Shown piece by piece: positions 304 through 59,269 of a stretch of 64,000 nt of DNA; the first letter of the stretch is position 1, and each line of letters begins with the position of its first letter. The notes under the pieces were generated by a model. That model was given only the letters and a program-made list of their open reading frames with translations. It did not search any database and was not told where the DNA came from. Where the stretch lies: assembly GCA_009392915.1 (NCBI GenBank), contig CP045477.1:608001-672000 (forward strand). The letters are read 5' to 3'. Made by a program: the position numbers and the translations under genes. Source of the DNA: Candidatus Forterrea multitransposorum CG_2015-17_Forterrea_25_41. GTDB taxonomy: Archaea > Iainarchaeota > Iainarchaeia > Iainarchaeales > CSSED10-239.

Positions 304-2331
304 ATGGTTTTTCCTTCTTTAAAAGTTACAAAAGAACTTACAGATAAGATAAGTAAACTTGAAGAAATAGAAAATACTAGAAGTGAAGATGAAGAAAAAA
401 TCATAAATCAATTTTTTAAAAAAGAAATATCTCAAAAACAATTAATTTCTCTATTAAGAGAGAAAAAAATACAATCTATTTCTAAAAAAACAGATATTAA
501 GGCAGTACATGCACTTGTAGATTATAATAAAACTTTAGCAAAGTTATCAGAAAATCTACAACTACAAAAAATACCTATTTATAGTATTGAAAATAGATCT
601 ACGTTTAAAAGAATTTTAAAAAACTTATTTACAAAGAAAACTAAAAAAATAAAACCAAAGAAAGTAGAAGTTAAAAAAGATATTGATACAAAAAAAGAAA
701 CTGAAATTAAAAAAGACACAAAAATTGAAACCAAAAAAGAAAAGAAAGATACAAATATCTTTGATAGAATATTTAAGAAAAGAGAAGCATTAGTTACAAA
801 AGTTGAAGAAAAACATGAAATCAAACCAACTTTTGAACCTCCAAAAGAACTTTTACCTGAAAACTATCAAGTCTTAATACATGGTTTTGCATATGCCTTT
901 ATTAGAGAATCAGAAAATGAAAGAATATATGTTGTTGCAGAACCAGAACTTACAGAAGAAGAAGAAAGAATTTTAAAAGAAACTAGAGAATCACTTATTA
1001 ATAAAATATCACTTGCAGATCTTACTGATGAGTCTCAAATGTATACTTTAGTTGAAAAAATATTTACAAGAAATAAAATAAAACTTGAAAAAGAACAAAA
1101 AGATAAAATTGTTTATTATATTATAAGACAAGTAAGTGGACTTGATAAAATAGAACCACTTATGCATGATCCATTAATTGAAGATATTGAGTGTGATGGT
1201 ATAGGGATACCAATCTTCATTGTTCATAGAAAATATGGACACATTGTAACAAATATTGTTCTAGATACAGAAAATGAACTACAACAATTTATTATAAAAA
1301 TGGCACACCTTTGTAAAAGTTATGTTTCATATGCATCTCCACTTTTAGATGCAATTTTACCAGATGGATCTCGTGTAAATGCAACATTAACTTCAAATGT
1401 TTCAACAAGAGGACCAACTTTTACAATCAGAAAGTTCCCTCAAAAACCATTAACAACAATTGATTTAATTAACTCTGAAACAATCACTCCAGAAATTGTA
1501 TCATATCTTTGGACATTACTTGAATTTAAAAAGAACATGATATTAATTGGACCAACAGCTGGTGGAAAAACAACACTTCTAAATGTAATTTCTTCATTTA
1601 TACCAGAAGCACAAAGAGTAGTATCAATTGAAGATACAAGAGAAATTAATCTTTTACTTAACAACTGGATTCCACAGATTACAAGAAGTGGTTTTGGACC
1701 TCCTGATCAAAATGGAAAAAGATATGGTGAAGTTAACATGAATGATCTTTTAAAAGAATCATTCAGACAAAGACCAGATTACTTAATTATCGGTGAAGTA
1801 AGAGGAGAAGAAATGGCTTTAATGTTCCAGGGTATGGCATCTGGACACTGTTCTCTATCAACAGTACACTCTAAAAGTGTAGAAGCATTAATTACAAGAA
1901 TTACAACTCCTCCAATCTCTTTAGATCCTTCACTTATAACAAGTCTTGATATTGTAATTGTAACAGGATTTACTGGTGTTGGAGAAGAAGGAAAGAGAGA
2001 AATTAAAGAAATTGATGAAATTAAAGGTTATAATAGTAAAGATAAGAAAGTAGAATATAATCCAATATATAAATCAATAGATAAATTTAAAGAAAAAAGT
2101 GCAACTTCACAAAGTGATCTTTTCCATAAAGAAACAGCTTTAGTATACAATAGTGATGTTTTAAAAGAAATATGTACAGAACATAATATTTCTAAAAAGA
2201 AAATGACAGATATAATAATGGCAAGAACTAAATTTATTGAAGCACTTACTAAAAACCCACCAAAAGATTACGTAGAATTTAATAAACTACTTAAAAATTA
2301 TAAAAGAAAAGAAGATTTTACTGAAAATTAA
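304..2331 (+). CDS. flaI: Type IV pilus/archaellum assembly ATPase (FlaI/ArlI, GspE/PilB family) with a long lysine-rich N-terminal extension
   Basis: Walker A GPTAGGKTTLLN is followed by the secretion-NTPase motifs (SIEDTREINL, LIIGEVRGEE). The first ~200 aa are low-complexity and K/E-rich. Confidence 0.8.
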   Translation: MVFPSLKVTKELTDKISKLEEIENTRSEDEEKIINQFFKKEISQKQLISLLREKKIQSISKKTDIKAVHALVDYNKTLAKLSENLQLQKIPIYSIENRSTFKRILKNLFTKKTKKIKPKKVEVKKDIDTKKETEIKKDTKIETKKEKKDTNIFDRIFKKREALVTKVEEKHEIKPTFEPPKELLPENYQVLIHGFAYAFIRESENERIYVVAEPELTEEEERILKETRESLINKISLADLTDESQMYTLVEKIFTRNKIKLEKEQKDKIVYYIIRQVSGLDKIEPLMHDPLIEDIECDGIGIPIFIVHRKYGHIVTNIVLDTENELQQFIIKMAHLCKSYVSYASPLLDAILPDGSRVNATLTSNVSTRGPTFTIRKFPQKPLTTIDLINSETITPEIVSYLWTLLEFKKNMILIGPTAGGKTTLLNVISSFIPEAQRVVSIEDTREINLLLNNWIPQITRSGFGPPDQNGKRYGEVNMNDLLKESFRQRPDYLIIGEVRGEEMALMFQGMASGHCSLSTVHSKSVEALITRITTPPISLDPSLITSLDIVIVTGFTGVGEEGKREIKEIDEIKGYNSKDKKVEYNPIYKSIDKFKEKSATSQSDLFHKETALVYNSDVLKEICTEHNISKKKMTDIIMARTKFIEALTKNPPKDYVEFNKLLKNYKRKEDFTEN

Positions 2332-3632
2332 AAAGGATCATCATAAGATAAAAGGCCGTCTTTTTGGGTTTTTTTAGTATAATTTTGTTTTTGTGGTTTT
2401 TTTTTCTTTTTTATAATTATTAAAAATATAATTAAAATTATTATTATTACAGAAATTACAATATAATAAAAAACACTATTTTGTTCAACTTCTTCTTCAA
2501 TAAAACCAGAATCAATAATTGCTTTAGATTTAGACTTTAAAATTGAAATTTTATCAATAGCTTGTGAATATTGAGCTTTTGAAACTAAATCATTATATTC
2601 ATTATATGTTCTAAAAAGAGCATCAACTTCTGATTGTTCCTTCCAATAAGGTTTGTATTCATCGTTTAAAATTGTAGTGATAGCATGCTCTAAATTGTTA
2701 TAATTTGTAAAAGAAGCATCATAACTAGTCATCAAGTCCTTTAATTTAACAGACTCCATCCTAAGTTTCAAGTTATCAATAAATATACTTACCTTTTCAT
2801 CACCTTTTAAATCTAAATATAGTTTAGAATAGAAAGAACTTGTTGAAGAAAGGCTTTCATAAACATAATTAATATTTGAATTAAGGCTTGAAGGAGGAGA
2901 AACTAAGTTTACAAGCCCAGAAATTTCATTTGCTGGAATATTATCTTCAGCTACAATTTTTGTAACCAATTGTTCTGATTCTTGAATATATTCTAAAGAA
3001 GCTTGAGATAATTTATCATAACCTTTAAAAGAAGAATCAAAAGATTTTAAAAGACTAGATGTATCTTTACAATCTGGAGAAGATAAAAATGAATTTTGAG
3101 AATTTAGAAGTGAAGTTAAACTTTCTTTTAGATCTTCAAGATAAACTATTAGATTATTTATATGATTAATTGTTATTGTTATTTGAGAATTAAGTTCAAC
3201 AGAATAATTCTTTTCTAAAAGACCATTTAATTGTGCTTTCTTTGAATTAAGAGAAGTAATTATTGAATTAATTCTGTCAATTAATTGAGAAGATAAATAA
3301 TTATTAGGATTTGAATTTTTTAAAGATTTTAAAAGATATTCAGTTTTGATTAAATTAACATTAAAAGAATCAGTTTCACTTAAATAAACTTGAGAAAGCT
3401 CATTTGAGATTGGAACAAATAAAACAGATTCTCCTAAAGAATTTACAATAGGTATTACAAAATATTCTTCATCTTCACAACTTATCTTTGGTTGTGTAAA
3501 AGTATCAATCATATCATTTTCAGAAAGATACTCTTTTGAAATATCTTGAGCTCCAAATAAAGATAAAGCAAAAAGGTTTGAAGAAAATAAAACAATCACT
3601 AAAAATATTAATAAAATCTTTTTCATAAACAT
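2328..3632 (-). CDS. Secreted, C-terminally membrane-anchored hypothetical protein
   Basis: Likely start at the internal Met (MFMKKILLIFLVIVLF...), giving a signal peptide. Long Ser/Asn/Leu-rich predicted extracellular region. C-terminal hydrophobic helix followed by KKKKK. Confidence 0.4.
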   Translation of the reverse strand: MFMKKILLIFLVIVLFSSNLFALSLFGAQDISKEYLSENDMIDTFTQPKISCEDEEYFVIPIVNSLGESVLFVPISNELSQVYLSETDSFNVNLIKTEYLLKSLKNSNPNNYLSSQLIDRINSIITSLNSKKAQLNGLLEKNYSVELNSQITITINHINNLIVYLEDLKESLTSLLNSQNSFLSSPDCKDTSSLLKSFDSSFKGYDKLSQASLEYIQESEQLVTKIVAEDNIPANEISGLVNLVSPPSSLNSNINYVYESLSSTSSFYSKLYLDLKGDEKVSIFIDNLKLRMESVKLKDLMTSYDASFTNYNNLEHAITTILNDEYKPYWKEQSEVDALFRTYNEYNDLVSKAQYSQAIDKISILKSKSKAIIDSGFIEEEVEQNSVFYYIVISVIIIILIIFLIIIKKKKKPQKQNYTKKTQKDGLLSYDDPF

Positions 3633-3651
3633 CAATTTTTTTAAACTATTA

Positions 3652-4629
3652 TTATTCATCTCTAATAGCTCCATTATTAAAAACTTTATAGAAAATAAAA
3701 ACATATAAAAGACCTATAAGAGAAAAGGCAATTGAAAAATATATCTGCGCCATTGAAGCAATTAAAATACCAATGAAAAGAGCAAAGAATTTATTTACAA
3801 CAACCATTAAAGGAATACTTGAAATTGAATCTAAAACTTGATTTTTAATATCATTAGTATTTAAATTTGCATAAAGTCTATCAAAATCTTCAGTACTTGT
3901 TTTAGCACTACTGTTTTCTTTAATATTTTCTATAAAGTCAATATAGTTATAGACTACAGGATCTTTTAATTTTTGTAACTCTTTATATTCTTCTGAATCT
4001 ATTATAAAATTTACAACTGAAGAAGTACTTGCTTTACTTATACTGTAAGAAGTACCAAGCCAATTACCAATATCATCACCTACAAAAACTTCAACCATAC
4101 CCATTTGCATTTTTTGAGAATAACTTGCTTGATTTGGTAAGATTACAAGAAAGATTACTAAAAATAAAGTTAAAGATAAAAGAATACTTATCTTTGAATT
4201 TGCATAGTTTGAAAGAGAGTTAAGATGATCTCTTTCTTTAAATTTATTATATGTTAGAATAGATAAAAGTAAATGAGAAGCTAAATAAAATAAAACAAAT
4301 AACCAAAAATTTGCAGAAAATTTAAATATTAAAAAAGAAATTATAAAACCTAAAGTTATTCCTAAAAAAACTTCTAAAAGATCTAAATTTTTTTCTTTTC
4401 TAACAGATAAAGCAATACAGATTGCAGAAGTTATTGGAAATAATAAAAGTAAAAATAAAAAATCTAATGTTAAAAAAGTATTAACAATATCAGATAAATT
4501 AAAAACAATTAAAGAAGTTAGAGAAATACCTGATGCTTTATAAAAAAACATCCACATTATTATTGAAAAAGCAATTAAAAATATTTTTAAAATACCTTTT
4601 TTTTCAAAAACTTCAGTATAACTCATCAA
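3652..4629 (-). CDS. Polytopic integral membrane protein (function unknown)
   Basis: Multiple hydrophobic helices spread over 325 aa. No recognisable catalytic motif. Confidence 0.4.
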   Translation of the reverse strand: MMSYTEVFEKKGILKIFLIAFSIIMWMFFYKASGISLTSLIVFNLSDIVNTFLTLDFLFLLLLFPITSAICIALSVRKEKNLDLLEVFLGITLGFIISFLIFKFSANFWLFVLFYLASHLLLSILTYNKFKERDHLNSLSNYANSKISILLSLTLFLVIFLVILPNQASYSQKMQMGMVEVFVGDDIGNWLGTSYSISKASTSSVVNFIIDSEEYKELQKLKDPVVYNYIDFIENIKENSSAKTSTEDFDRLYANLNTNDIKNQVLDSISSIPLMVVVNKFFALFIGILIASMAQIYFSIAFSLIGLLYVFIFYKVFNNGAIRDE

Positions 4630-5542: not shown

Positions 5543-6052
5543 TCATTTTTTATTTTTTTTAGAAATATTTTTCTTTGAACTATTAAAAGAAAGTATAAAT
5601 AAAAATAACATCGCAATTATAATTCCTGAAAATAAAGGAAGATCACTTACAGGAACTTTATTTGAAGATTTAATTACTGTAAAATATTTACTAAAAAGAT
5701 TATTTGAAGGATTATCATCTGTATCAGTTAAAAAAATTCTTAGCATATATGGTTGGTTTGAATAATTAATATCAGCACCTGTAACTGTTATTAAATTATC
5801 ACCATCATTTAAAGAACCATTATCAGTATAGAAAGGAGCTCCTCCTGTTGGTCTGTAAATGTTTAAATCATAATCTGCAAATCCTGGAGAATTTGAAGAA
5901 ACTACAACTGTAATATTAAAATCTGAATTAGCTCTTACAGTGTTTGGAATTACAACATCAGTTATTCCAAAATCATCATAAGCAGAAATATTGAAAGAAA
6001 TAAAAATAATCATTAAAAAAGATATTATACTAAAAATAATTTTGTTTTTCAA
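5543..6052 (-). CDS. Small secreted hypothetical protein with C-terminal membrane anchor
   Basis: N-terminal hydrophobic signal. C-terminal TM helix plus KKNISKKNKK tail. Confidence 0.35.
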   Translation of the reverse strand: MKNKIIFSIISFLMIIFISFNISAYDDFGITDVVIPNTVRANSDFNITVVVSSNSPGFADYDLNIYRPTGGAPFYTDNGSLNDGDNLITVTGADINYSNQPYMLRIFLTDTDDNPSNNLFSKYFTVIKSSNKVPVSDLPLFSGIIIAMLFLFILSFNSSKKNISKKNKK

Positions 6053-19933: not shown

Positions 19934-20725
19934 TTAATCTTCAAACAATTCTGAATCTATTAAATATTCTTTCTTTTGTTTTTTAGGTTTTATTACAGAA
20001 TTTTTAATAACAAAATTTTTAATAGATTTTTCAAGAGTATCTCTAAAGATTAAAATAATAGATAATAAAATAATAAATATAATTATTAAATAATAAAAAA
20101 TATTTGAATCACTTGACCCAACAAGTACAAAACTTGGTTTTGGAGGTTTTTTTTCATAAATTAAAACTTTTATTTGGTTTGTTGAAAAACTATTCCAGTA
20201 AAGAGTATTATCAACAATCTCTGCTTTAGGGTTTGTATCTCTAAAAACTAAAGGATCGTAGACTTTTATAGATAATTTTGAATTAGAAGGAATTACATAA
20301 AGATTATTAACAATTAAACTTCTAAATAAATTTTCATTAAACTTCCAAAGAATATCATCTTCTGTTTCATAGAAATTTTCTAATATTAAATCAGATATTT
20401 CATAATTAATATTTATTTGATCTTTTGTTTCATCAAAAATAATAGAAACATTTGAAAAATCATTTAAATAAATATTAGGTTTTAATCTTGGATCAATTTC
20501 TTCAAATTTATCAAGATCTATATTTGCAGCAATTATTTGGTTTTTAAAATTAACTTTATCATTATAGATATAAGGGTTATAAGATACATCCCAAACTTCT
20601 TTAATAATTGCCTTATCTGGACTTTTAATATCAATAGTTATATTAAAATTAGTAATTTCTGCAGAATAAACAGTAGAGGCAAATAAAAAAATTAAGAAAA
20701 ATATTAATAATTGTTTATATTTCAT
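19934..20725 (-). CDS. Secreted hypothetical protein with C-terminal TM anchor
   Basis: N-terminal signal peptide and C-terminal hydrophobic helix. Confidence 0.35.
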   Translation of the reverse strand: MKYKQLLIFFLIFLFASTVYSAEITNFNITIDIKSPDKAIIKEVWDVSYNPYIYNDKVNFKNQIIAANIDLDKFEEIDPRLKPNIYLNDFSNVSIIFDETKDQININYEISDLILENFYETEDDILWKFNENLFRSLIVNNLYVIPSNSKLSIKVYDPLVFRDTNPKAEIVDNTLYWNSFSTNQIKVLIYEKKPPKPSFVLVGSSDSNIFYYLIIIFIILLSIILIFRDTLEKSIKNFVIKNSVIKPKKQKKEYLIDSELFED

Positions 20726-20859: not shown

Positions 20860-21891
20860 TTAAAAGATCCTATCAAAACCATTTATTTCAAAAACATAAA
20901 TTAATAAATTATAAGAATTAGCATAATTTGCATACCCTAAAAAAGAAAAAAGAGAAGAATTAAAATTAATTAAAGAAATTTTTTTAGAATTTAATAAAAG
21001 ATTATTAAGTTTTTGTCTTTTTATAAATCTCTTAACATTTGATTTTCTTAGTTTTACTTTAGTTGGGTAAATTTTATAACCTAAAAAATCAACCCCTTTA
21101 TCTACTAAATTAATATAAGTTTTGTTTTTAGGAATTGTAAGTAACAAATTATTTTTTAAAAATAATTTAATTTTTCTTCTGAAAATACTTAACTCTTGTT
21201 TAGAATTTGAAAATATTAAAAAATCATCAACATACCTATAATAGTGTTTGATTTTTAAAGTATGCTTAATATATTGATCAAGCTCATTTAAATAGATATT
21301 TGCAAAAAGTTGAGAAGTTAAATTACCAATAGGAATTCCTTTTTTATTATTTAAAAACGAAAAAGAATAACTATCTATTATTTTATATATTATAACCAAT
21401 AATTGCTTGTCTTTAATTCTTTTTTTTATAATATATTTTAAAACCTCTTTTTCAATAGAAGGAAAATATTTTTTAACGTCTTGTTTTAAGTAATATTTAG
21501 GAGATTTTTTAGATTGAACTAATTTTTTTATTTCTAAAAAACCTTTAAAAGTACCTTTTCCTTTTCTACATGCAAAAGAATTATTTATAAAAGTTTTATC
21601 AAAGATAGGCTCAATAATATTTATAATTGCATGTTGAACAACGACATCTCTAAAACAAGGAGCACTAATAATTCTTTCTTTAGGTTCATATACCTTAAAA
21701 TTTCTATATGGAGAAAAATTAAAATTACCAGAAATTAATTCTTCTTGTATTAAAAATAATTCTTTTTCAAGATTTTGAGTAAATTTTAAAATATATTTCT
21801 TATTAGGATTTGATTTTCTGGCACGTTTATATGCATTATAAATGTTTTTAAAAGAAGTAAATTCTTCCCAAAGATTATTATATGATTTCAT
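20860..21891 (-). CDS. DGR-type reverse transcriptase
   Basis: RT motifs including catalytic YVDD (YRYVDDFLIFS) and the DGR-specific motif-4 signature IGNLTSQ. Lies directly downstream of the template repeat. Confidence 0.88.
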   Translation of the reverse strand: MKSYNNLWEEFTSFKNIYNAYKRARKSNPNKKYILKFTQNLEKELFLIQEELISGNFNFSPYRNFKVYEPKERIISAPCFRDVVVQHAIINIIEPIFDKTFINNSFACRKGKGTFKGFLEIKKLVQSKKSPKYYLKQDVKKYFPSIEKEVLKYIIKKRIKDKQLLVIIYKIIDSYSFSFLNNKKGIPIGNLTSQLFANIYLNELDQYIKHTLKIKHYYRYVDDFLIFSNSKQELSIFRRKIKLFLKNNLLLTIPKNKTYINLVDKGVDFLGYKIYPTKVKLRKSNVKRFIKRQKLNNLLLNSKKISLINFNSSLFSFLGYANYANSYNLLIYVFEINGFDRIF

Positions 21892-22124
21892 TTTTTATAG
21901 AACCTATTAAAAATTAAAAGTTATTACAGATTTCTTTAATCTAATAAAATTAAAATACTAAATGTAATAACTTATTTTTATATTCGATTTTTAAAACATA
22001 AAAACAAAAATGTTTTTATGGCATACCTTATATGCAATCAGGAAACATTTTACAGATGTAGTTTTTAGAATATACACTTTGCATATTTTAAAAAATAAAA
22101 ATAAATATACAAACTCTGATAAAA

Positions 22125-22146
22125 CCTTATTTCTTTAAAAATAAGG
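22125..22146 (-). other. Stem-loop abutting the 3' end of the DGR template repeat
   Basis: ccttattt-ctttaaa-aataagg gives a perfect 8-bp inverted repeat, 2 nt from the TR boundary. Confidence 0.4.
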
Positions 22147-22148
22147 AG

Positions 22149-22269
22149 AAACTACTGAACACAGCGCAGGCCGATGTTGTTGTTCCGGTTCCCAGGAGTA
22201 TTGTTCAAGTTCAAGTTCAAGACCCCTGCATTAGTTCCATTGTTCCAGTTACCACCGCGCAGGAAAGAA
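22149..22269 (-). repeat. DGR template repeat (TR)
   Basis: 121-nt GC-rich repeat, 101/121 identical to the 3' end of the target gene. On the gene strand every mismatch is an A in this copy, including repeated AAC codons. Not inside an ORF. Confidence 0.88.
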
Positions 22270-22345
22270 ACGACTCCTTTTTCTGTAAAAGCCCTATTCT
22301 TTTTATAACTAAAAAGAACAAAATAAATAATTATTAGAAAAGTTT

Positions 22346-22675
22346 TTATAAATTATGCTTTAAAAGCCCCCCAATTAATTTACCTAAATCATTTAGTTTT
22401 TTAGAAATAACTTCATATTTTTTAAAAGAAATAATTTTTAGATCAAAAGAGAGCCTCACATATATTTTTAAAAGTTCTAAATCAGTATCAATTTGATTTA
22501 AAGTATTAATTTTATGTTTTGAAAAAAGAATAGTATTAGATAATAAAGAAATAGTAGTTTTTTTCAAATCTTCTCCTAAAATATATTTGTCAGATTTAGG
22601 AAATTTTTTAATTTCAGGATAAATATAAAGTAAAAAGTTATATGTTTCTTTATATAACTTTAAATCAAATAACAT
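22346..22675 (-). CDS. avd: Avd (DGR accessory variability determinant); four-helix-bundle family
   Basis: 109 aa basic protein. KLYKETYNFLLYIYPEIKKFPKSDKYILGEDL...LNDLGKLIGGLLKH matches the Avd/23S-IVS four-helix-bundle pattern. Located between target gene and TR. Confidence 0.7.
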   Translation of the reverse strand: MLFDLKLYKETYNFLLYIYPEIKKFPKSDKYILGEDLKKTTISLLSNTILFSKHKINTLNQIDTDLELLKIYVRLSFDLKIISFKKYEVISKKLNDLGKLIGGLLKHNL

Positions 22676-22685
22676 ATTATAAACA

Positions 22686-23093
22686 CTATTTTTTATTTTC
22701 TTCTATTTTTTTTATAAGTCCATTAAAATATTTAATTTTTTCTTCAAATTGATTATAAAAAAAAAGAATTTTATCTTTAGATAAATCTTTATTAATTTCA
22801 CTTAATATAAGTAAATTTGATTGAGTTGTAGAAACACAATCTCTTGAATAAGAATAAAGTAATGATTTTTCATTAGAATGATATTTATTATATCCTTTTG
22901 ATAAAAAAGAAAGAATATTTATTAAATTTGAAATAGTTTCTTGAAAAATAAAATTATCATTTATAGATGATTTATTTTCTTCTAAAAATTTATAAGTATT
23001 AATAACTAAAGGAAAGAGTTCTTTGTAAACCCCAAAATTTAAAATTCCTCTTTCTATATTTACTAAACTCATAACAACCATATTTTTGTCCAA
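22686..23093 (-). CDS. Hypothetical protein inside the DGR cassette (possible second accessory factor)
   Basis: 135 aa ORF, co-oriented, between the target gene and avd. No recognisable motif. Confidence 0.35.
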   Translation of the reverse strand: MDKNMVVMSLVNIERGILNFGVYKELFPLVINTYKFLEENKSSINDNFIFQETISNLINILSFLSKGYNKYHSNEKSLLYSYSRDCVSTTQSNLLILSEINKDLSKDKILFFYNQFEEKIKYFNGLIKKIEENKK

Positions 23094-23267
23094 TATATAT
23101 TGTGATTTATTAAAACCACTTTAATTGAGTAGCAAATTTTTTTGTAAAAAACAAAAAAATTTGCAAAAGCAAAAAACATTTGCTTTCTCTTTTGCCAATT
23201 TATTTTTTTCTTTTTTCACTTTTATTTTTTATTTTTTTGCACAAACTCAATCTTGAAGCATTGTTTT

Positions 23268-23309
23268 TCGCGACGTTACCCGTCTTACCGTCTTGCCGTC
23301 TCACCCGTC
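23268..23309 (-). repeat. GC-rich tandem direct repeats 3' of the VR
   Basis: Four imperfect tandem copies of (a/g)(c)ccgtct(t/c) (gene strand GACGGNNA) in an otherwise AT-rich intergenic region, ~34 nt downstream of the target-gene stop. Confidence 0.4.
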
Positions 23310-23342
23310 AAAATACAATATTCTCGAAATACATTTTTTCAA

Positions 23343-23463
23343 AAACTACTGAACACAGCGCAGGCCGACGACGCTGCCCCGGCCCCCAGGAGTAAAGTTC
23401 AAGCGCAAGCCCAAGACCCCCGCATTAGTTCCACTGCCCCAGCCACCACCGCGCAGGAAAGAA
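23343..23463 (-). repeat. DGR variable repeat (VR) at the 3' end of the target gene
   Basis: 121-nt copy of the TR with 20 substitutions, all at TR-adenine positions (A to G/C/T on the gene strand). Spans the final 39 codons plus stop of ORF 23346-24707. Confidence 0.88.
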
Positions 23464-24707
23464 TATACAGTAGTAGAAGTATCTCCAAAATCACTATAAG
23501 TGTAAATTCTACCAACACCATTATCTGCTGCATTATAATTATTACTTGTAAGTAAAAATAAATCTTTATACTCTAAAGTGGTATTACCTAAATTATCAGA
23601 AGAAATGTATTGGGCTTCTCCACCACCTTTTGAATAATCAAAATAATCAAAACCAGTAGTAAAGTTACTATCATCAGCATTGTTAAAACCATCAGGTTGG
23701 TCTTTTCTTTGGATAGTGTCACTTGTCCATTGCCAAACATTACCAGCTAAGTCCCAAATTACTTCACCGTTTGTTAAAGTTAAGGTTCTTTTTGTAGTGC
23801 CAGAAAGTTCATCAAAACCTTCCATAGCACCAGAAGAAGAAGAATTACCACGTGGAAGATAACCTTCTCCAACAACTCCAGTTGACCAGTTTGAAGGTAC
23901 TTGTTCAATGTTTCTTGCAATGGTCATCCATTCGTCATTTGTTATTAAATGTCCACCTACTGCAGCACAAGCTGCAATAGCTTCGGTTTGGGAAATTCTT
24001 GCTATTGGAGAACCTTCTGGAGTTGATACTAAAGTGCCTGGAGTAGGACATAATTCATAACTATAAGTATTATAGGTTAAAGAACCAGTATTACAATCTG
24101 GATAATCAGCTACAAGGTTTCCTTTACCATCTCCATTTGCATCCATTTTCATTTCATATTTTGAAACACAAAAACCACCACGCTCATTCATGGTTCCATA
24201 TAAATGGTTTCCTGGAACTGGAACATAGCCTTCTGGACAAGAAAGAGGAGTTTTTACGGTTTGAAAAAGATCAGGTTTAGTTATCATTTGAGAATTGTCT
24301 AAATATAAAACTAAATCTAAAGAGTCACCTAAAATACCATGATCAAGAGTAGCAGATTGATTGGAAAGAATAGTGACAGGAGGTTCTAAAGGATTAATGT
24401 TTGAATTGCCTAATAAACTATAACCGGTAATGGTAATAGAAGTATAAGGAGAACCATAAGGGGGTTTATACTCTAGAAGAGAACGACCATTGATAGAAGA
24501 TTTAATATTTAAATAAAAGCCAGTTTCTGATTCTGTATAAACTTCAATACTTGAAGCTTTAGAAAAAGAATCATTGGTAAAGCCTTTACCCCAAGAAAGA
24601 ATAATACCAATAATAGCAACAGAGACAACTATTAAAAGAATGGTGGCTATCAAAGGAGAAATACCTTTTTGAAATCTAAAACGCTGAAAAATATATTTGA
24701 AAAACAT
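23346..24707 (-). CDS. DGR target protein: pilin-like surface protein with C-terminal FGE-sulfatase/C-type-lectin-fold variable domain
   Basis: N-terminus FQKG|ISPLIATILLIVVSVAIIG is an archaeal class III (prepilin) signal. C-terminal domain has the FGE hallmark AGNVWQWTSD and ends ...RGGGWGSGTNAGVLGLRLNFTPGGRGSVVGLRCVQ, which is encoded by the VR. Confidence 0.85.
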   Translation of the reverse strand: MFFKYIFQRFRFQKGISPLIATILLIVVSVAIIGIILSWGKGFTNDSFSKASSIEVYTESETGFYLNIKSSINGRSLLEYKPPYGSPYTSITITGYSLLGNSNINPLEPPVTILSNQSATLDHGILGDSLDLVLYLDNSQMITKPDLFQTVKTPLSCPEGYVPVPGNHLYGTMNERGGFCVSKYEMKMDANGDGKGNLVADYPDCNTGSLTYNTYSYELCPTPGTLVSTPEGSPIARISQTEAIAACAAVGGHLITNDEWMTIARNIEQVPSNWSTGVVGEGYLPRGNSSSSGAMEGFDELSGTTKRTLTLTNGEVIWDLAGNVWQWTSDTIQRKDQPDGFNNADDSNFTTGFDYFDYSKGGGEAQYISSDNLGNTTLEYKDLFLLTSNNYNAADNGVGRIYTYSDFGDTSTTVYSFLRGGGWGSGTNAGVLGLRLNFTPGGRGSVVGLRCVQ

Positions 24708-30531: not shown

Positions 30532-32322
30532 ATGGCAACAGAATATACAAGAATAGCAGTAATTGATAAAAATAAATGTCAACCAAAAGCATGTAACTAT
30601 CTATGCCACAGAGTTTGTCCTCCTGTTAAAATGGGAGAAGATGCAATCGAAGTTACAAATAGAGAAAACTGGACACCACCAGTAATTAATGAATCATTAT
30701 GTACTGGTTGTGGTATTTGTCCTCACAAATGTCCTTTCAATGCAATTACAATTATAAACACAGGAATTAAGTTTGGAGATCCAATACACCAATATGGTCA
30801 AAATAGTTTTAGAGTATATTCTCTTCCATCTGCTGAAAAAGGTTTTATTACTGGGCTTATTGGAATTAATGGTTCTGGAAAAACAACAAGTATAAACATC
30901 CTTTCAGGAAATTTAGTTCCTAACTTAGGAGCCTATGATGAAAAAGAAGACATAGATAAAGTAATTGAGTATTATAGAGGAAAAAACATCCAAAAGAATT
31001 TTATAGAAATTAAAGAAAAAAAATTATCTTTTGCATATAAAATACAGAAAGTTGAAGAAATTCCAAAAGTCTTTAAAAAAAGCATTAAAGAATTACTTGA
31101 AAATATTTCAAAAGATAAAGAATATTATGAAAAAATTATAAAAGAACTTGAAATTGAAAAACTTCTTTTAAAAACACCAACAGAGGTATCAGGTGGAGAA
31201 TTACAAAGAATAGCAATTGCTGCATGTCTTTTAAAAGATGCTCAAATTTATTTTTTTGATGAGTACACTACATTTTTAGATATTAAACAAAGATTTAAAA
31301 TTGCAAAAATATTAAGAGAGAAAATAAATGAAAATAATTCAATTATGTTAATTGAACATGATCTTGCAATCCTAGATTACATTAGTGATTTTGTACAAAT
31401 AATGTTTGGTAGGAAAAATGCATATGGACAATCTTCTAATAAAAAAACAACAAAAAAAGGAATTAATGAATTTTTAGAAGGTTTCTTAAAAGAAGAAAAC
31501 ATAAGAATTAGAAATTATAAAATAGAATTTAGCTCTGCAAAATATGCAACTGAAAAAAGAATAGAAACCACTCTTGCAAAATATCCTTCTTTTAAAAAAA
31601 CATTAGGAGAATTTAACCTAGAAGTTGAAGAAGGAGAAATTAAGAAAGGAGAAATAATTGGTGTTTTAGGACAAAATGCTATTGGAAAAACAACCTTTAT
31701 AAAAATTCTTGCAGGAGAAATCAAAGCAGATGATAAAGATCTAGATATTAAACTTAAAGTGTCTTATAAACCACAATATATCGATCTTAATGAAGATATT
31801 ACTGTTCAAGAATTATTTTTAAAAAAAGAAATAAATCAAGATATTTTTAATTCAGAGATTAGAAGACAACTTGATATTGATAGTATAATTGATCAAGAAA
31901 TAAATCAACTTTCTGGAGGAGAACTTCAAAAGGTTGCAATTGCATATACTCTTTCAAGAAATGCAGACATCTATCTTATTGATGAACCATCAGCATTTTT
32001 AGATGTTGAGCAAAGATTAATTGTTTCAAATGTTATTAAAAGCGTTATCTTAAAGACAGAAAAAAGTGCTTTAGTTGTAGATCATGATCTTTTATTTGTA
32101 GACTATATTTCAGATAGAGTTCTTTTATTCCAAGGAGAAGCCTCTGTTAAAGGTTTTGCAAACAAAATAGATAAAATAGAAGCTTCTTTTAATAAATTTT
32201 TAAAAGAACAAAACATGACTTTTAGACAAGATCCTGATACTAAAAGACCAAGAGCAAATAAACCAGACTCACAAAAAGATAAAGAACAAAGAAAAGATAA
32301 TAGTTATTATTATACTATTTAA
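30532..32322 (+). CDS. abcE1: ABCE1 / RNase L inhibitor-like ribosome recycling factor
   Basis: N-terminal 2x[4Fe-4S] ferredoxin domain (CQPKACNYLCHRVCPP; CTGCGICPHKCP) and two ABC cassettes (GINGSGKTT; LSGGELQ). Confidence 0.9.
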   Translation: MATEYTRIAVIDKNKCQPKACNYLCHRVCPPVKMGEDAIEVTNRENWTPPVINESLCTGCGICPHKCPFNAITIINTGIKFGDPIHQYGQNSFRVYSLPSAEKGFITGLIGINGSGKTTSINILSGNLVPNLGAYDEKEDIDKVIEYYRGKNIQKNFIEIKEKKLSFAYKIQKVEEIPKVFKKSIKELLENISKDKEYYEKIIKELEIEKLLLKTPTEVSGGELQRIAIAACLLKDAQIYFFDEYTTFLDIKQRFKIAKILREKINENNSIMLIEHDLAILDYISDFVQIMFGRKNAYGQSSNKKTTKKGINEFLEGFLKEENIRIRNYKIEFSSAKYATEKRIETTLAKYPSFKKTLGEFNLEVEEGEIKKGEIIGVLGQNAIGKTTFIKILAGEIKADDKDLDIKLKVSYKPQYIDLNEDITVQELFLKKEINQDIFNSEIRRQLDIDSIIDQEINQLSGGELQKVAIAYTLSRNADIYLIDEPSAFLDVEQRLIVSNVIKSVILKTEKSALVVDHDLLFVDYISDRVLLFQGEASVKGFANKIDKIEASFNKFLKEQNMTFRQDPDTKRPRANKPDSQKDKEQRKDNSYYYTI

Positions 32323-32819
32323 GGTCTTCTTTGGAAAATAATTTCTGCAGAAATATAATTATCTACAATTGAAACATTACAATCAGATAAATCACCAGAA
32401 ACATCTATTTCTTTATCAAAATAAACTTCTTTTGAAATTTCAGAAGTAATATTTGAAGATTGATTATTACATAATAAATCTAATTTTCCAGAATATCTGT
32501 CTCCTGAAAGAGCAGAATTTTCAATTGTAATATCACAATCAAGGCTATTTTTATTTGTTTCATTTAACATAGATGAAAGATAATTATTAACTCTTGAATC
32601 ATAATTATTTTTTGTTGCAATTGAACAACTATTAAAAGTTTCATCCAGCAAAGAATCTACAACAATATTATCTGCTGATAAGGCTAAAAGAGAAACATGA
32701 TTATAAGAATTTGTTATAACTTCTGTGTTATCAGAAATAATTATTGAAGGAGTTAAAAAAACTATAACAATTAATAAAATAATTCCACTAAACAAACCTT
32801 TTTCCATCAAACCCCTCAC
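32319..32819 (-). CDS. Archaeal type IV pilin-like protein (class III signal peptide)
   Basis: N-terminus MEKG|LFSGIILLIVIVFL. Fourth gene of a co-oriented cluster. Confidence 0.5.
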   Translation of the reverse strand: MRGLMEKGLFSGIILLIVIVFLTPSIIISDNTEVITNSYNHVSLLALSADNIVVDSLLDETFNSCSIATKNNYDSRVNNYLSSMLNETNKNSLDCDITIENSALSGDRYSGKLDLLCNNQSSNITSEISKEVYFDKEIDVSGDLSDCNVSIVDNYISAEIIFQRRP

Positions 32820-33090
32820 AATAAACTTTAGTTTCTAAATCATTATAACCATTATCAGTTGAAGTAAAATCATAATAAAAATATTCAGTACACCAGTAAT
32901 ACTCAGCTAGACTTGTAACTTCTCCTTCTCCTGAATTAAACTCATTGTAGTTAAGTGAATTTAAAATTACTTGCTTATCTGTATTAACTGACCTATAAAC
33001 AACAAAAGTTGTAAGTGTTAAAAACAAAATAAATATCATTACATAATGAAGAGTTGTAATTGTTAAAATATATCCTTTATTTTGTTTCAT
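32788..33090 (-). CDS. Archaeal type IV pilin-like protein (class III signal peptide)
   Basis: N-terminus QNKG|YILTITTLHYVMIFILFL. Confidence 0.45.
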   Translation of the reverse strand: MKQNKGYILTITTLHYVMIFILFLTLTTFVVYRSVNTDKQVILNSLNYNEFNSGEGEVTSLAEYYWCTEYFYYDFTSTDNGYNDLETKVYCEGFDGKRFV

Positions 33091-33600
33091 TTATCTCCAC
33101 ACCTTTAAATTTAGTTCTTGTTTAGTATCTAAAATATTATCATTACCAGATAAACTATCAATATACCTTTTTTTATTAATTGCAAAGTTTGGTGTAATTG
33201 AAACATTAAAATCTATAGAATAATAATTATCAATTGATGGATCTAAAACATCAGTACATTCATTTGTAGTAAAAGCATAACTTGTAAGAGAACATTTATA
33301 GTTTGTAGGAATCCCTAGATTGTTTTTTGAAATATTTGAATTTTCAGTAAGGCATGCAGGAATATGATATCTATTATGAGAATCAAAAGCATAACAATTA
33401 ATATATGGATTATTAACTATATTTTTAAAAGCCATTTTTCCAACATTGTTTAATTGAGAATTAATATTATCTGTTGTTGTAGAATAAACTTTTGATTCAA
33501 CAATATTTACTAAAAGGAAAGAAACAAGTATGATTAGAACAACTGAAAAAAGAATATCTAAAACCATAATTTGTCCTTTTTTATTTTTAATCATAATCAA
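33091..33600 (-). CDS. Archaeal type IV pilin-like protein (class III signal peptide)
   Basis: N-terminus KNKKG|QIMVLDILFSVVLIILV. Confidence 0.55.
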   Translation of the reverse strand: MIMIKNKKGQIMVLDILFSVVLIILVSFLLVNIVESKVYSTTTDNINSQLNNVGKMAFKNIVNNPYINCYAFDSHNRYHIPACLTENSNISKNNLGIPTNYKCSLTSYAFTTNECTDVLDPSIDNYYSIDFNVSITPNFAINKKRYIDSLSGNDNILDTKQELNLKVWR

Positions 33601-34070
33601 TCACAAACAATATCTCCAGAACTATTATAACAAGTTACTATTTCTCCACAGTATTTCTCAAAATCACTAAAAGAAAATTTAGTGTTGTTTAAAGACATGT
33701 TTTGATCGTAATAAATAACAGAATCATCATACTCTACAATCATATTTAAAAAACCAGGGTTAATAATAAACTTACATTCTACATTCTTAGAAGGAATCGT
33801 AATGTTTGGAATTTTAAAAGTATTTTCAAAACTTACATTAAAATTATTATCAACAACATCAGTTACAAATATTTCTTGAGACTTTAAAAAACTATAAAGA
33901 GAATCTGAAATTTGAGATTGTTGTTCTTTTATTTTATATAACTCAATTGTTTCAACAGTATTGTTTGAAAGATCATTAAATACAGTTATAAATATTATTA
34001 GAAAGATAATAATGATTACAACTTCAATTGAAACTTGAGCTTTTTTATTTCTATTCATAAATATTAACAA
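33597..34070 (-). CDS. Archaeal type IV pilin-like protein (class III signal peptide, Glu at +5)
   Basis: N-terminus NRNKKA|QVSIEVVIIIIFLII. Confidence 0.5.
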   Translation of the reverse strand: MLIFMNRNKKAQVSIEVVIIIIFLIIFITVFNDLSNNTVETIELYKIKEQQSQISDSLYSFLKSQEIFVTDVVDNNFNVSFENTFKIPNITIPSKNVECKFIINPGFLNMIVEYDDSVIYYDQNMSLNNTKFSFSDFEKYCGEIVTCYNSSGDIVCD

Positions 34071-34145
34071 TTAATTAGTTATATATTATAAAATAGAATA
34101 AAACATTTATAAACATTAGCAATTTAAAGAAAAAAAAGAAAAAAA

Positions 34146-34705: not shown

Positions 34706-34778
34706 GGGGTTGTAGCATAGTGGATAGTGCAGTTGGCTTCGGACCAACAGGTCGTGGGTTCAAATCCCACCAACCCCT
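34706..34778 (+). tRNA. tRNA-Arg (anticodon TCG)
   Basis: Manual fold: acceptor GGGGTTG/CAACCCC, D-stem GCAT/GTGC, anticodon stem GTTGG/CCAAC with loop CTTCGGA, T-arm GTGGG-TTCAAAT-CCCAC. No encoded CCA; followed by a T-run. Confidence 0.85.
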
Positions 34779-43453: not shown

Positions 43454-43852
43454 TTAACCTTTTAATTTTTTATTAACATTTTTTAAAATTTCTAAAACTT
43501 CTTTACCTTCTTTTCTATTGATAGCTTTTGAAAATTCTTTTATAAACTCATTATGTTTTTCTGTTTTTGAAAAACTCCATAAAAATTTACTAAAAATATT
43601 CTCAAACAAAGTCTCTGCTTTTTCTTTTTCAACTTTAGAAAGACCATTTACTTTATGTTTTACTCTTGCAGATAAAATTTTATGATTTGCAAGCATTTTT
43701 TGATCTAAAACAACACCTGTACTAAATTTAGATGCATTTGATTTATTTTTCACAAAAGTTTCAGCTAAACTTTTATATTCCTGAATAGAAGGATGTTTTT
43801 TTAAATTTTTAAGATAAGGATTTTTTTTTAATGCAGGATTATTACTTTTCAT
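43454..43852 (-). CDS. Small basic hypothetical protein, tandem paralog A
   Basis: 132 aa. Shares LKKN...YK...KILSxRV...INRKxGxEVLEIL..KK with 43865-44260. Confidence 0.35.
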   Translation of the reverse strand: MKSNNPALKKNPYLKNLKKHPSIQEYKSLAETFVKNKSNASKFSTGVVLDQKMLANHKILSARVKHKVNGLSKVEKEKAETLFENIFSKFLWSFSKTEKHNEFIKEFSKAINRKEGKEVLEILKNVNKKLKG

Positions 43853-43864
43853 ATTTTTTTCACT

Positions 43865-44260
43865 CTAAATATATTTTTTTGAAATTTCCATTAATATTTC
43901 TAAAACTTCTCTACCTTTTTTTCGATTTATCTTTTCTGCAAAAACTTTTGAAAATTCAAAATATTTTAAACAACAATTTTTTTCTTCTAAAAGATTTAGT
44001 TTATTATAAATCTTATTTAAGAGAGAGAGTGCTTTTTTCTTGTCTTCAACAGGTAAATTTTTTAGTTTATTTGAAACTCTAACACTTAATATTTTATAGT
44101 TTACTAAATTTCTTTCAATTAACATATGTTTCTTTAAAACTTTATCTGTGGTTCCTTTAAGTTTTGTTGCAAATCCCTTATAATGACTAACAGTATGAGA
44201 TTTTTTTAAATCTGTTATCATTTTATTTTTTTTCAATGAAGGAAGATTTGTTTTTGGCAT
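43865..44260 (-). CDS. Small basic hypothetical protein, tandem paralog B
   Basis: 131 aa paralog of 43454-43852. Confidence 0.35.
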   Translation of the reverse strand: MPKTNLPSLKKNKMITDLKKSHTVSHYKGFATKLKGTTDKVLKKHMLIERNLVNYKILSVRVSNKLKNLPVEDKKKALSLLNKIYNKLNLLEEKNCCLKYFEFSKVFAEKINRKKGREVLEILMEISKKYI

Positions 44261-47894: not shown

Positions 47895-47967
47895 CGAGTC
47901 CGGAGGGATTCGAACCCTCGACCCACAGCTTAGAAGGCTGTTGCCCTATCCACTAGGCCACGGACCC
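47895..47967 (-). tRNA. tRNA-Arg (anticodon TCT)
   Basis: Minus-strand fold: acceptor GGGTCCG/CGGACTC (one G-U), D-stem GCCT/GGGC, anticodon stem ACAGC/GCTGT with loop CTTCTAA, T-arm GAGGG-TTCGAAT-CCCTC, discriminator G. No encoded CCA. Confidence 0.85.
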
Positions 47968-48047: not shown

Positions 48048-49640
48048 TTAATTTCCTGTGTTGTTAGAAGATAAATTTGTGTATGCTTCTTCTAATTCCT
48101 GAATTTCATCTTGATAATTTAAAGATACAAGATCATATACTGTTTGAACTCCTAAAACAGGATTTAATTCAAATAATTTTCTATTAACATCTAAAGAAAT
48201 ATTTTGATCTTCAGAACATTTTAAGAAAAGTATAGGGAATATTGAAAAAACATCATTTGTAACTAAAGGTTTAATTACAAGATTTATTTTATCAGAATAT
48301 AAATATTCTTCATAAAATTCATCTGTTAAAGTTTCTTTTTCAAATTGATTACAATAAGGACAATCATAATCTGTGAAAAGAACAACTGAAACAGGTGCAT
48401 CTTCTGTACCAATTAATTTATCTGATTCTTTAATAATTGAAGAATAATCTAATATTTTATAGATACCATCAATACCACTACCTAAAGCAAGTTGAGGGAA
48501 AACATCTTCTCTTAAGATATATCCATTGTTAACAGTTTCTTCTTTAAAGATTAAATTAAAAATATCTTTATTTTCAGAACCATTAAAATCAACGGAATTA
48601 ACATCTCCTAAAACATACATTGCAGGTAATGTATTTGAACCAATAGTTTCTAAAATTTCAATTCCTAATTCAGAATCGTATTGTACATATTCAACATCTA
48701 AATCAAATAAAACAGAGAAAATAGAATTTACATTTTCAAGTAATAATTCAGAAGTTTTTAAATATTCAATAAACTCTGTATTCTTTTCAGAAATCATTTC
48801 ATTTTCTTTATCGTAAATATAATACATTTTTAATGAATCTTGAGTATATGAAAATGAAGAATTATCATAATTTAGATCTAATGACTCTACGTTTTCTACA
48901 GAATCAATAAACTCTGTAAAAACATTATAATCTTTAAAACCAGATAAATTATATCCATTTACATAGATTGTTGGAGTTGACATTACATATAATTCTTGTG
49001 CTTGTAAGAAATCATTTTGTATTACACTTACTTTTTCATAATCATATAGATTAGAATCTTTTAAAAGATAATTATTTTCTAAAAGACAAGCATCCATTTC
49101 TTCAGAATTAATATTTAAATCTGAATAACTTTCTTCTAAAATTTCTTTTTGATAAGTTCTCATATCAGTTAAAAGAGTTAAAGTTAAGTTTAATGATTTT
49201 TCTTCAAATTCTTCTGCACTCATAGTAACAGTAAAAGTATTTGAATCAATTGTATTTGTGTCAGTTCCATTTAAAGGATCATCATTTGTTTGAACAGGAG
49301 TTATAGGAATTAAAAATGCTAAAGCAATAATTAAAACTATTAAACCAGCTAAAACACCAATAATTACATAATCTCTTTTTTTAGTAGATCTCTTTTTTGA
49401 AACATCTTTATGTTTTTCGTGAGAATGAACTTCAACTTTTGGTTCGTGTTTTTCAATTTCAACTTTTTTAGGTGTTGAAACTTTTTTTGAACTCATCTTC
49501 TTTGGCATTGCCTTTTTTGAAGTAGTTGATTTTTTTTTTGCTTTGTTTTTATTAACATCTAAAACAGTATTTGTATCTTCAAAAACAACTTGTACTTTTT
49601 TTGGAGATTTAGCTTTAGATTTTTTTTTAGTTTTAGCCAA
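48048..49640 (-). CDS. Membrane-anchored extracytoplasmic protein with C-terminal thioredoxin-like CPYC domain
   Basis: K-rich N-terminus, one TM helix (VIIGVLAGLIVLIIALAFLI), and C-terminal FTDYDCPYCNQFEKE thiol-disulfide oxidoreductase motif. Confidence 0.5.
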   Translation of the reverse strand: MAKTKKKSKAKSPKKVQVVFEDTNTVLDVNKNKAKKKSTTSKKAMPKKMSSKKVSTPKKVEIEKHEPKVEVHSHEKHKDVSKKRSTKKRDYVIIGVLAGLIVLIIALAFLIPITPVQTNDDPLNGTDTNTIDSNTFTVTMSAEEFEEKSLNLTLTLLTDMRTYQKEILEESYSDLNINSEEMDACLLENNYLLKDSNLYDYEKVSVIQNDFLQAQELYVMSTPTIYVNGYNLSGFKDYNVFTEFIDSVENVESLDLNYDNSSFSYTQDSLKMYYIYDKENEMISEKNTEFIEYLKTSELLLENVNSIFSVLFDLDVEYVQYDSELGIEILETIGSNTLPAMYVLGDVNSVDFNGSENKDIFNLIFKEETVNNGYILREDVFPQLALGSGIDGIYKILDYSSIIKESDKLIGTEDAPVSVVLFTDYDCPYCNQFEKETLTDEFYEEYLYSDKINLVIKPLVTNDVFSIFPILFLKCSEDQNISLDVNRKLFELNPVLGVQTVYDLVSLNYQDEIQELEEAYTNLSSNNTGN

Positions 49641-59198: not shown

Positions 59199-59269
59199 AG
59201 CCTCAATAGGGAGTCGAACCCTATTCTTCCGCTCTGCAGGCGGATGCATGACCGTTCTGCCATTGAGGC
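59199..59269 (-). tRNA. tRNA-Cys (anticodon GCA)
   Basis: Minus-strand fold: acceptor GCCTCAA/TTGAGGC, anticodon stem TCCGC/GCGGA with loop CTGCAGA, T-arm TAGGG-TTCGACT-CCCTA. Short variable loop. No encoded CCA. Confidence 0.8.

Follow-up and report, generated by a model that had tools for sequence, protein, structure and literature searches.

What do four small, unannotated genes lying in a row among the translation genes of a DPANN archaeon encode, and do their products belong to a type IV filament? The genes, here called g1 to g4 (together, the quartet or cassette), are found in a 64,000-nucleotide stretch of the genome of Candidatus Forterrea multitransposorum (contig CP045477.1, positions 608,001 to 672,000), below referred to as the window. 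The window has about 25% GC and carries archaeal housekeeping genes (RFC, ABCE1, EF-1beta, histone, PolB, FtsZ, exosome and proteasome subunits), and the host, a DPANN archaeon whose genome is small, belongs to the Iainarchaeota (Diapherotrites) lineage. The organism is represented in more than 90 assemblies and is abundant in groundwater and sediment samples. An initial annotation, made from the sequence alone, had proposed that the four proteins bear archaeal class III (prepilin-type) signals and are type IV pilin-like. Sequence, conservation and predicted structure support this proposal well, and it is likely that the proteins are substrates of a prepilin peptidase and enter a type IV filament-like structure.

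The four consecutive open reading frames (ORFs) are indeed present at 32319..34070 on the minus strand, downstream of EF-1beta and convergent with ABCE1, and no plus-strand ORF of at least 50 amino acids competes with them. The protein lengths first given, 157, 169, 100 and 166 amino acids, are those of the longest ORFs, with TTG or GTG starts, whereas the N-termini of orthologs favor the ATG starts adopted in Table 1. The spacing is 2 nucleotides between g1 and g2 and 0 nucleotides between g2 and g3, and g3 and g4 overlap by 20 nucleotides; with such tight packing, the four genes form one operon. The ratio of nonsynonymous to synonymous substitution rates for g1–g4, based on few substitutions relative to genomes with 94–97% identity, is 0.15–0.65. 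As judged by sequence comparison, the genes are real, evolve under purifying selection and are conserved in all relatives. The operon promoter presumably lies in the intergenic region upstream of g1, with TTTATAAA and TTATAATAT as putative elements in a 25% GC background where TATA-like strings are frequent; the promoter and terminator scan was of the bacterial type and hence uninformative for an archaeon.

Two features of the FlaFind-type definition of a class III signal are seen in each of the four proteins, namely, a charged residue at position −2 followed by Gly or Ala (more rarely, the definition allows Ser) at −1 close to the N-terminus (KA↓Q, KG↓Q, KG↓Y and KG↓L, the arrow marking the predicted cleavage site), and a hydrophobic domain of about 20 residues right after the site, without a downstream AxA-type signal peptidase I site. 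The hydrophobic stretch comprises 20–26 residues, with a mean Kyte–Doolittle hydropathy of 2.1–2.8 over 18 residues. All four K–G/A motifs quoted in the initial annotation, as well as Glu at +5 of g1, are thus found in the sequence. When all six frames of the window were scanned for ORFs that have [KR][GAS] within 16 residues of the start and a strongly hydrophobic stretch of 18 residues behind it, six ORFs passed: g1–g4, a 324-amino-acid polytopic membrane protein, and the target protein of a diversity-generating retroelement (DGR). Given the background of two in about 62 ORFs, four passes in succession are expected about 7e-5 times per window by our arithmetic, and therefore the run of four adjacent genes is beyond chance.

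The residues at the site are conserved in evolution. Among 63 homologues of g1, position −2 is Lys or Arg in 58, position −1 is Gly in 56 and Ala in seven, +3 is Ser in 58, and both Gln at +1 and an acidic residue at +5 (54 Asp, nine Glu) are found in all 63. Gly and Ala interchange at −1 in the orthologs of g1 and g2, [KR]G↓[YF]I is conserved in the g3 orthologs, and KG↓LFS is invariant in those of g4. Constraint on such residues in front of a hydrophobic helix fits the site of a prepilin peptidase, and would not be needed by a plain membrane anchor. Conservation extends beyond the site, to the K[GA]↓Q...LD motif, the C-terminal LKVW[RK] and four Cys in g2, and to Pro at +16 and four Cys, all invariant, in g4; g3 ends with the motif W..C..FYYD...YCEG, which contains two Cys.

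In the pilins of Methanococcus maripaludis, the experimentally defined sites of the prepilin peptidase EppA are RA↓QI, KG↓QV, KG↓QL and KG↓QI, with Gln at +1 required and Glu at +5 (PMC4371748 Table 1; PMC3875500). Both residues are found in g1, with Gln +1 invariant across its homologues, whereas g2 has Gln at +1 but its Asp at +6, g3 has Tyr or Phe at +1, and g4 has Leu. Hence, the Epd pilins of this species (EpdA–E, MMP1283; type IV filament "system 1," with EppA) resemble g1 in the basic leader, its Gly/Ala end, Gln +1 and Glu +5, and g2 in Gln +1; they are also encoded by operons with several pilin-like genes, at loci scattered away from the ATPase. The differences are that the globular parts of the quartet proteins match no Pfam or NCBIfam family, that g3 and g4 have no Gln +1, and that the cassette adjoins ABCE1 instead of being linked to eppA, ATPase or platform genes, with no EppA gene found in the 84 kb formed by the window and 10 kb on each side. 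System 1 has been reported in some DPANN (bioRxiv 10.64898/2026.04.22.720090). For g3 (KG↓YI) and g4 (KG↓LF), the closer resemblance is to the PibD-type pilins of Sulfolobus and Haloferax (UpsA/B, AapA/B, PilA1-6), which have KG↓IS or RA↓LS, no acidic residue at +5 and a similar length of 100–170 amino acids, but show no sequence similarity to the quartet.

Among family models, PF04021 (Class_IIIsignal, DUF361) is the commonest Pfam match in the g1 family, aligning at the extreme N-terminus in eight of 22 members, all below the gathering threshold (best E = 0.008). For g1 itself the score is 13 bits (E = 0.11) against a threshold of 23.7 bits; g2–g4 have no match to this model, nor do the 63 distant g1 homologues at E ≤ 0.01. 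A Pfam search with the distant cassette members gave nothing useful, and a sequence search of the PDB with the quartet proteins matched no solved structure.

Predicted models show the arrangement typical of pilins, an extended N-terminal α-helix followed by a globular, mostly-β domain. The AlphaFold2 model of g1, built from 22 sequences, has a predicted local distance difference test score (pLDDT) of 86 and a predicted template modeling score (pTM) of 0.72, with an unbroken helix over residues 11–64 and then seven strands. In the model of g4 (11 sequences, pLDDT 75), a transmembrane helix leads to a break at the invariant Pro, beyond which come two further helices and a sheet of five strands. 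The architecture of these models supports the description "pilin-like," with homology to any particular pilin not established. Thus, of the pilin fold that structural prediction had been expected to identify, the helix-plus-β arrangement emerged for g1 and g4, but not a significant Foldseek match for g1 in the PDB. Solved archaeal pilins have a β-sandwich fold. For two of the four proteins the models suggest a bacterial-style α/β pilin fold, which is new. The number of invariant Cys is even in each family (four in g1, g2 and g4, and two in g3), and N-glycosylation sequons reach 3.9 per 100 amino acids in g1 and 2.5 in g4, as compared to 0.69 ± 0.46 in 38 presumably cytoplasmic proteins of the window. 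The even Cys counts and the sequon enrichment of g1 and g4 fit proteins predicted to be exported and glycosylated. In hhalign comparisons, the four families show no relationship past the N-terminus, a common situation in sets of pilins, and since similarity is confined to that part, recent paralogy of g1–g4 is ruled out.

Close homologues are few, about 20 for g1 and about 10 for g4 among 5.8 billion proteins, and all of them are unnamed or hypothetical; copies of g4 in Iainarchaeum metagenome-assembled genomes (MAGs) are 94% (Candidatus Iainarchaeum sp.) and 41% (another MAG) identical. The order of the quartet is kept in every locus examined, that is, in L001, L002, L004, L007, L008, L011 and L013, and, at a greater distance, in L016–L019, while L012 retains only g3 and g4 because the contig is cut. 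The gene order in close relatives is an aS21-like Zn-ribbon gene, EF-1beta, g1-g2-g3-g4, convergent ABCE1, RFC, PCNA and Lon. A profile search with the g1 family in 1.84 billion representative proteins yielded about 65 additional proteins of 130–160 amino acids and about 20% identity. A further search for related loci gave only seven metagenome loci, most of them duplicates. Four of these distant homologues could be placed on contigs of higher GC content (L016–L019), and each opens a four-gene cassette (Table 1). The second protein of these cassettes has the K-G↓Q...[LI]D start and the KVW[KR] end of g2, and hhalign relates g2 to the second gene of L016 with a probability of 94% and E = 1.5e-7. 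The third proteins start with [KR]G↓FIF and end with a C.G motif, and the fourth start with KG↓; the hhalign matches of g3 and g4 to their positional counterparts in L016 are not significant, so that for these two genes the correspondence is one of order, size and terminal motifs.

The cassettes of L016, L017 and L019 are followed by genes for an Asn-synthase-like protein (DUF7411), ABCE1 and Pelota, and the L018 contig ends just beyond the cassette. As these three distant cassettes, too, lie beside ABCE1, comparison of gene order indicates that the module is old and vertically inherited, and not a mobile accessory. Moreover, as several distant uncultivated archaea share this unannotated quartet, the four genes probably supply a fixed set of pilus components and are not an oddity. 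New here are four unannotated families with defined motifs (K[GA]↓Q.S.[DE]; K[GA]↓Q...[LI]D...KVW[KR]; [KR]G↓[FY]I; KG↓), and the joint inheritance of these four genes, in synteny with the translation gene ABCE1, among divergent archaea. Variation among the distant cassettes is seen at L016 5318-10652, L017 214-3140 and 9217-11010, and L019 10001-11644; in L016, the third protein is enlarged to 360 amino acids, and a divergently transcribed gene encodes a 582-amino-acid protein with a class III-like start NKA↓QAFSVFW and a HEIGH zinc-protease-like motif.

Table 1. Positions of features in the window, and protein lengths in the distant four-gene cassettes
Feature	Position	Strand	Description
g1	33597..34058	−	153 amino acids, MNRNKKA↓QVSIEVVIIII; predicted leader MNRNKKA (34058..34038), predicted cleavage before Q; mature N-terminus QVSIE(+5)VVIIIIFLIIFITVF
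g2	33091..33594	−	167 amino acids, MIKNKKG↓QIMVLDILFS; leader MIKNKKG; mature N-terminus QIMVLD(+6)ILFSVVL
g3	32788..33090	−	100 amino acids, MKQNKG↓YILTITTL; leader MKQNKG; mature N-terminus YILTITTLHYVMIF
g4	32319..32807	−	162 amino acids, MEKG↓LFSGIILL; very short leader MEKG; mature N-terminus LFSGIILLIVIVFLTP
Intergenic region	34059..34145	−	87 nucleotides, AT-rich, from the EF-1beta stop to the g1 start; presumed operon promoter
FlaI-family ATPase	304..2331	+	675 amino acids, long N-terminal extension
DGR	20860-24707		complete, apparently active
DGR reverse transcriptase	20860..21891	−	
DGR template repeat	22149-22269		
DGR bAvd-like gene	22346..22675	−	
DGR second small helical ORF	22686..23093	−	
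DGR variable repeat	23343-23463		
DGR target	23346..24707	−	453 amino acids
Secreted, C-terminally anchored protein	2328-3704	−	458 amino acids
Polytopic membrane protein	3652-4626	−	324 amino acids
Secreted/anchored protein	5543-6052	−	
Secreted/anchored protein	19934-20725	−	
Secreted/anchored protein	48048-49640	−	
Small basic ORF	43454-43852	−	132 amino acids
Small basic ORF	43865-44260	−	131 amino acids
tRNA gene	34706-34778	+	
tRNA gene	47895-47967	−	
tRNA gene	59199-59269	−	
Cassette of L016			138/179/360/204 amino acids
Cassette of L017			149/175/103/170 amino acids
Cassette of L018			131/165/98/134 amino acids
Cassette of L019			137/165/97/150 amino acids

Locus L017 provides a candidate processing enzyme. 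There, 7.5 kb from the quartet, lies the gene of a 368-amino-acid EppA/FlaK-like peptidase, which matches Peptidase_A24 and Arc_PepC and is aligned full-length by the NCBIfam EppA model. Its operon also encodes a 58-amino-acid Flp-like protein that starts with KG↓QVSFE, and two other KG↓Q proteins matching PF04021 with 23.8 bits (threshold 23.7) and 18.4 bits (below the threshold). Thus, organisms bearing the quartet appear to have a matching processing system.

Several observations weigh against the assignment of the quartet to a type IV filament. Neither a prepilin peptidase nor a FlaJ/TadC platform protein was found in the 84 kb by a Pfam search with membrane and neighboring proteins and a scan for G[AGS]D[VIALM]K, which detected the L017 peptidase as a positive control. 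The cassette resides among translation genes, 30 kb away from the FlaI-family ATPase of the window. No Pfam or NCBIfam model reaches its threshold on g1–g4, and the best match of the g1 model in a Foldseek search against the PDB, with E = 0.25, is not significant. In g3 and g4 the +1 Gln required by EppA is missing, which calls for the assumption of either two peptidase specificities or a single permissive enzyme. Finally, the role of a minor-pilin complex, discussed below, is suggested by analogy. The failure to find a peptidase or platform, the housekeeping surroundings (EF-1beta, ABCE1, RFC) conserved in all lineages, the absence of a pilin family model at threshold and the Foldseek result would agree with uncleaved signal anchors, that is, N-in/C-out single-pass proteins that form a membrane-tethered extracellular complex, e.g., for envelope organization or host contact, and involve no type IV machinery, the K–G/A being just a part of the positive-inside flank. 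However, this would leave unexplained why a fixed Gly/Ala, then Gln, and an acidic +5 residue persist across 63 proteins with about 20% identity, why the motif is identical to proven EppA sites (PMC4371748), and why an EppA-like operon occurs near the L017 quartet; we therefore regard uncleaved anchors as very unlikely. Stand-alone pilin loci are normal in archaea, where pilins need not adjoin the machinery (PMC4858521; PMC3875500; PMC4371748).

Returning to prepilin-peptidase substrates, we infer cleavage, filament assembly, a minor-pilin role and the identity of the machinery along the following lines. The N-terminal hydrophobic helix would insert each protein into the membrane, where a prepilin peptidase would cut off the basic leader of 4–7 residues after the invariant Gly/Ala; in the case of g1 and g2, whose +1 residue is Gln, this would probably be an EppA-like peptidase. 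A FlaI-family ATPase and a platform protein would then pull the mature proteins out of the membrane and stack their N-terminal helices into a pilus-like fiber, with the globular domains, disulfide-bonded and glycosylated, pointing outward. The four proteins may form a minor-pilin complex of defined stoichiometry for priming or capping the filament, the major subunit being encoded elsewhere (cf. GspH-I-J-K, FimU-PilV-W-X).

The ATPase encoded in the window (T2SSE, E = 1.4e-31; FlaI model, E = 3e-96) was initially linked to the quartet. This link stands insofar as the two co-occur in the genome, but the ATPase is distant, it has pilin-like neighbors of its own, and the co-occurrence is seen in one genome only. 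Upstream of it, outside the window (L009 7738-9973), are genes for an N-terminally anchored protein of 325 amino acids, for two pilin-like proteins of 123 and 152 amino acids (starting with MIKS↓VEAVIAV and MKEKG↓FTYIIIVV, respectively) and for a coiled-coil protein of 112 amino acids. Still farther upstream, anchored proteins of 493 and 610 amino acids are encoded, and no FlaJ/TadC (T2SSF-type) platform gene was recognized beside the ATPase.

This ATPase and the quartet might make up a self-sufficient pilus, with g1 as the major shaft pilin, g2–g4 as minor pilins, and the ATPase at 304..2331 assembling the fiber. In favor of this, g1 is the first gene, has the most canonical site (Gln +1, Glu +5), the model with the cleanest lollipop shape and the highest sequon density, and archaeal pilins need not adjoin their machinery (PMC3875500; PMC4371748). 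On the other hand, nothing marks g1 as more abundant, its translational coupling to the other three genes suggests equal stoichiometry, the ATPase has its own pilin-like neighbors, and the major pilin of Epd-type systems is a short (about 60–75 amino acids) Flp-like protein encoded elsewhere (PMC3875500), just as a 58-amino-acid Flp-like protein adjoins the L017 peptidase. A self-sufficient pilus is unlikely. A search of the window and its flanks for a short Flp-like major pilin with K[GA]Q.S.[DE] was negative. The initial description of the quartet as "major and minor pilins" is not supported: no major subunit can be identified, and four non-paralogous members in a fixed arrangement are more reminiscent of a group of minor pilins.

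By analogy with GspHIJK or PilVWX, the quartet may be a minor-pilin set that primes or caps the filament, a role that we propose tentatively. It is favored by the four members being non-paralogous, in fixed order, translationally coupled and inherited as a unit, and by the Epd-type shaft subunit being a short Flp-like protein encoded elsewhere. The bacterial minor-pilin and pseudopilin sets (GspH-I-J-K, FimU-PilV-W-X, ComGD-GG) likewise consist of four consecutive non-paralogous genes, one of them very small, with an acidic +5 residue in some members only. They differ from the quartet in having no sequence homology to it (GspH/I/J/K, PilV/W/X and ComGD-GG homology was not detected in g1–g4 by Pfam, NCBIfam and PDB sequence searches); the leader of the quartet is of the archaeal type and not G↓F(M)TLIE, its genes are not beside assembly genes, and a heteromeric complex is here only putative.

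The same resemblance in number and size to ComGD-GG and GspH-K, and to BasABC, would also suit a pseudopilus- or bindosome-like device, i.e., a short envelope-spanning stub for secretion, uptake or DNA transfer, like the pseudopilus of the type II secretion system, the Com pilus or the Sulfolobus Bas structure, and so would the fact that the cassette consists of core, vertically inherited genes in reduced genomes. No locus, however, links the cassette to a gene for a secretin-independent secretion substrate, for DNA uptake or for an ABC transporter. Such a stub seems to us highly improbable, although sequence data alone cannot separate it from a filament whose minor pilins are encoded by the quartet.

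A diversified pilus tip had also been suggested, given the DGR and its pilin-like target in the same window. The DGR is real: the template and variable repeats, 121 nucleotides each, share 83% identity, their 20 mismatches being confined to adenines of the template repeat. The target combines an UpsA-like pilin N-terminus (QKG↓ISPLIATILL) with a C-terminal domain resembling formylglycine-generating enzyme (FGE)-sulfatase and C-type lectin domains. Its position relative to the cassette is, however, not conserved, as it is missing from the equivalent site of L007, L008 and L011, and a homologous DGR with its target is found elsewhere in L004 (7128..9813). Since the DGR is absent or located elsewhere in relatives, we reject the idea that it makes up one conserved system with the quartet.

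The surface machinery of DPANN is largely "dark matter" (PMC6393860), and pilin-like proteins of this sort are expected in their genomes (PMC6393860; PMC4858521; bioRxiv 10.64898/2026.04.22.720090), so in kind the quartet is already known. DPANN are thought to rely on contacts to other cells; for four families previously listed as hypothetical, the quartet gives a concrete prediction. If the minor-pilin complex is true, it would offer a small target for the study of contact between DPANN and their hosts, and would extend the concept of minor-pilin priming or tip complexes from bacteria to archaea; if not, the quartet is one more routine entry in the long list of pilin-like proteins of archaea. 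A bolder reading, which we consider rather doubtful, would see in the quartet an ancient core module, passed on vertically within a large group of archaea that are uncultivated and probably DPANN. Its four subunits would form an initiation or tip complex of minor pilins with the bacterial-style α/β fold, the archaeal counterpart of GspHIJK/PilVWX, retained beside ABCE1 from 25% GC to high GC. For archaea with small genomes, which may depend on other cells, the module would be a main determinant of cell–cell attachment, and in some lineages it would have been provided with modular add-ons (e.g., the 360-amino-acid third subunit, L016).

Other features of the window (Table 1) include three tRNA genes, which are its sole Rfam matches; the first lies 650 nucleotides upstream of the cassette operon, past the EF-1beta and Zn-ribbon genes. 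The polytopic membrane protein, the sole non-pilin ORF that passed the N-terminal motif scan and conceivably a very divergent platform protein, has no family match, and its gene overlaps those of methionine aminopeptidase and of the 458-amino-acid anchored protein. Between the proteasome-alpha and exosome genes, two adjacent ORFs encode apparently paralogous basic proteins with a common internal LEIL motif close to the C-terminus. Three secreted or anchored proteins have no family assignment, and one of them, of 169 amino acids, carries 3.6 sequons per 100 amino acids, a density comparable to that of g1 and suggestive of heavy glycosylation of the surface proteome. About 5.5 kb past the right end of the window, a thiamine pyrophosphate-enzyme gene (L014 15492-17525; pyruvate/2-oxoacid:ferredoxin oxidoreductase beta-like) contains an intein, as follows from its Intein_splicing and LAGLIDADG matches.

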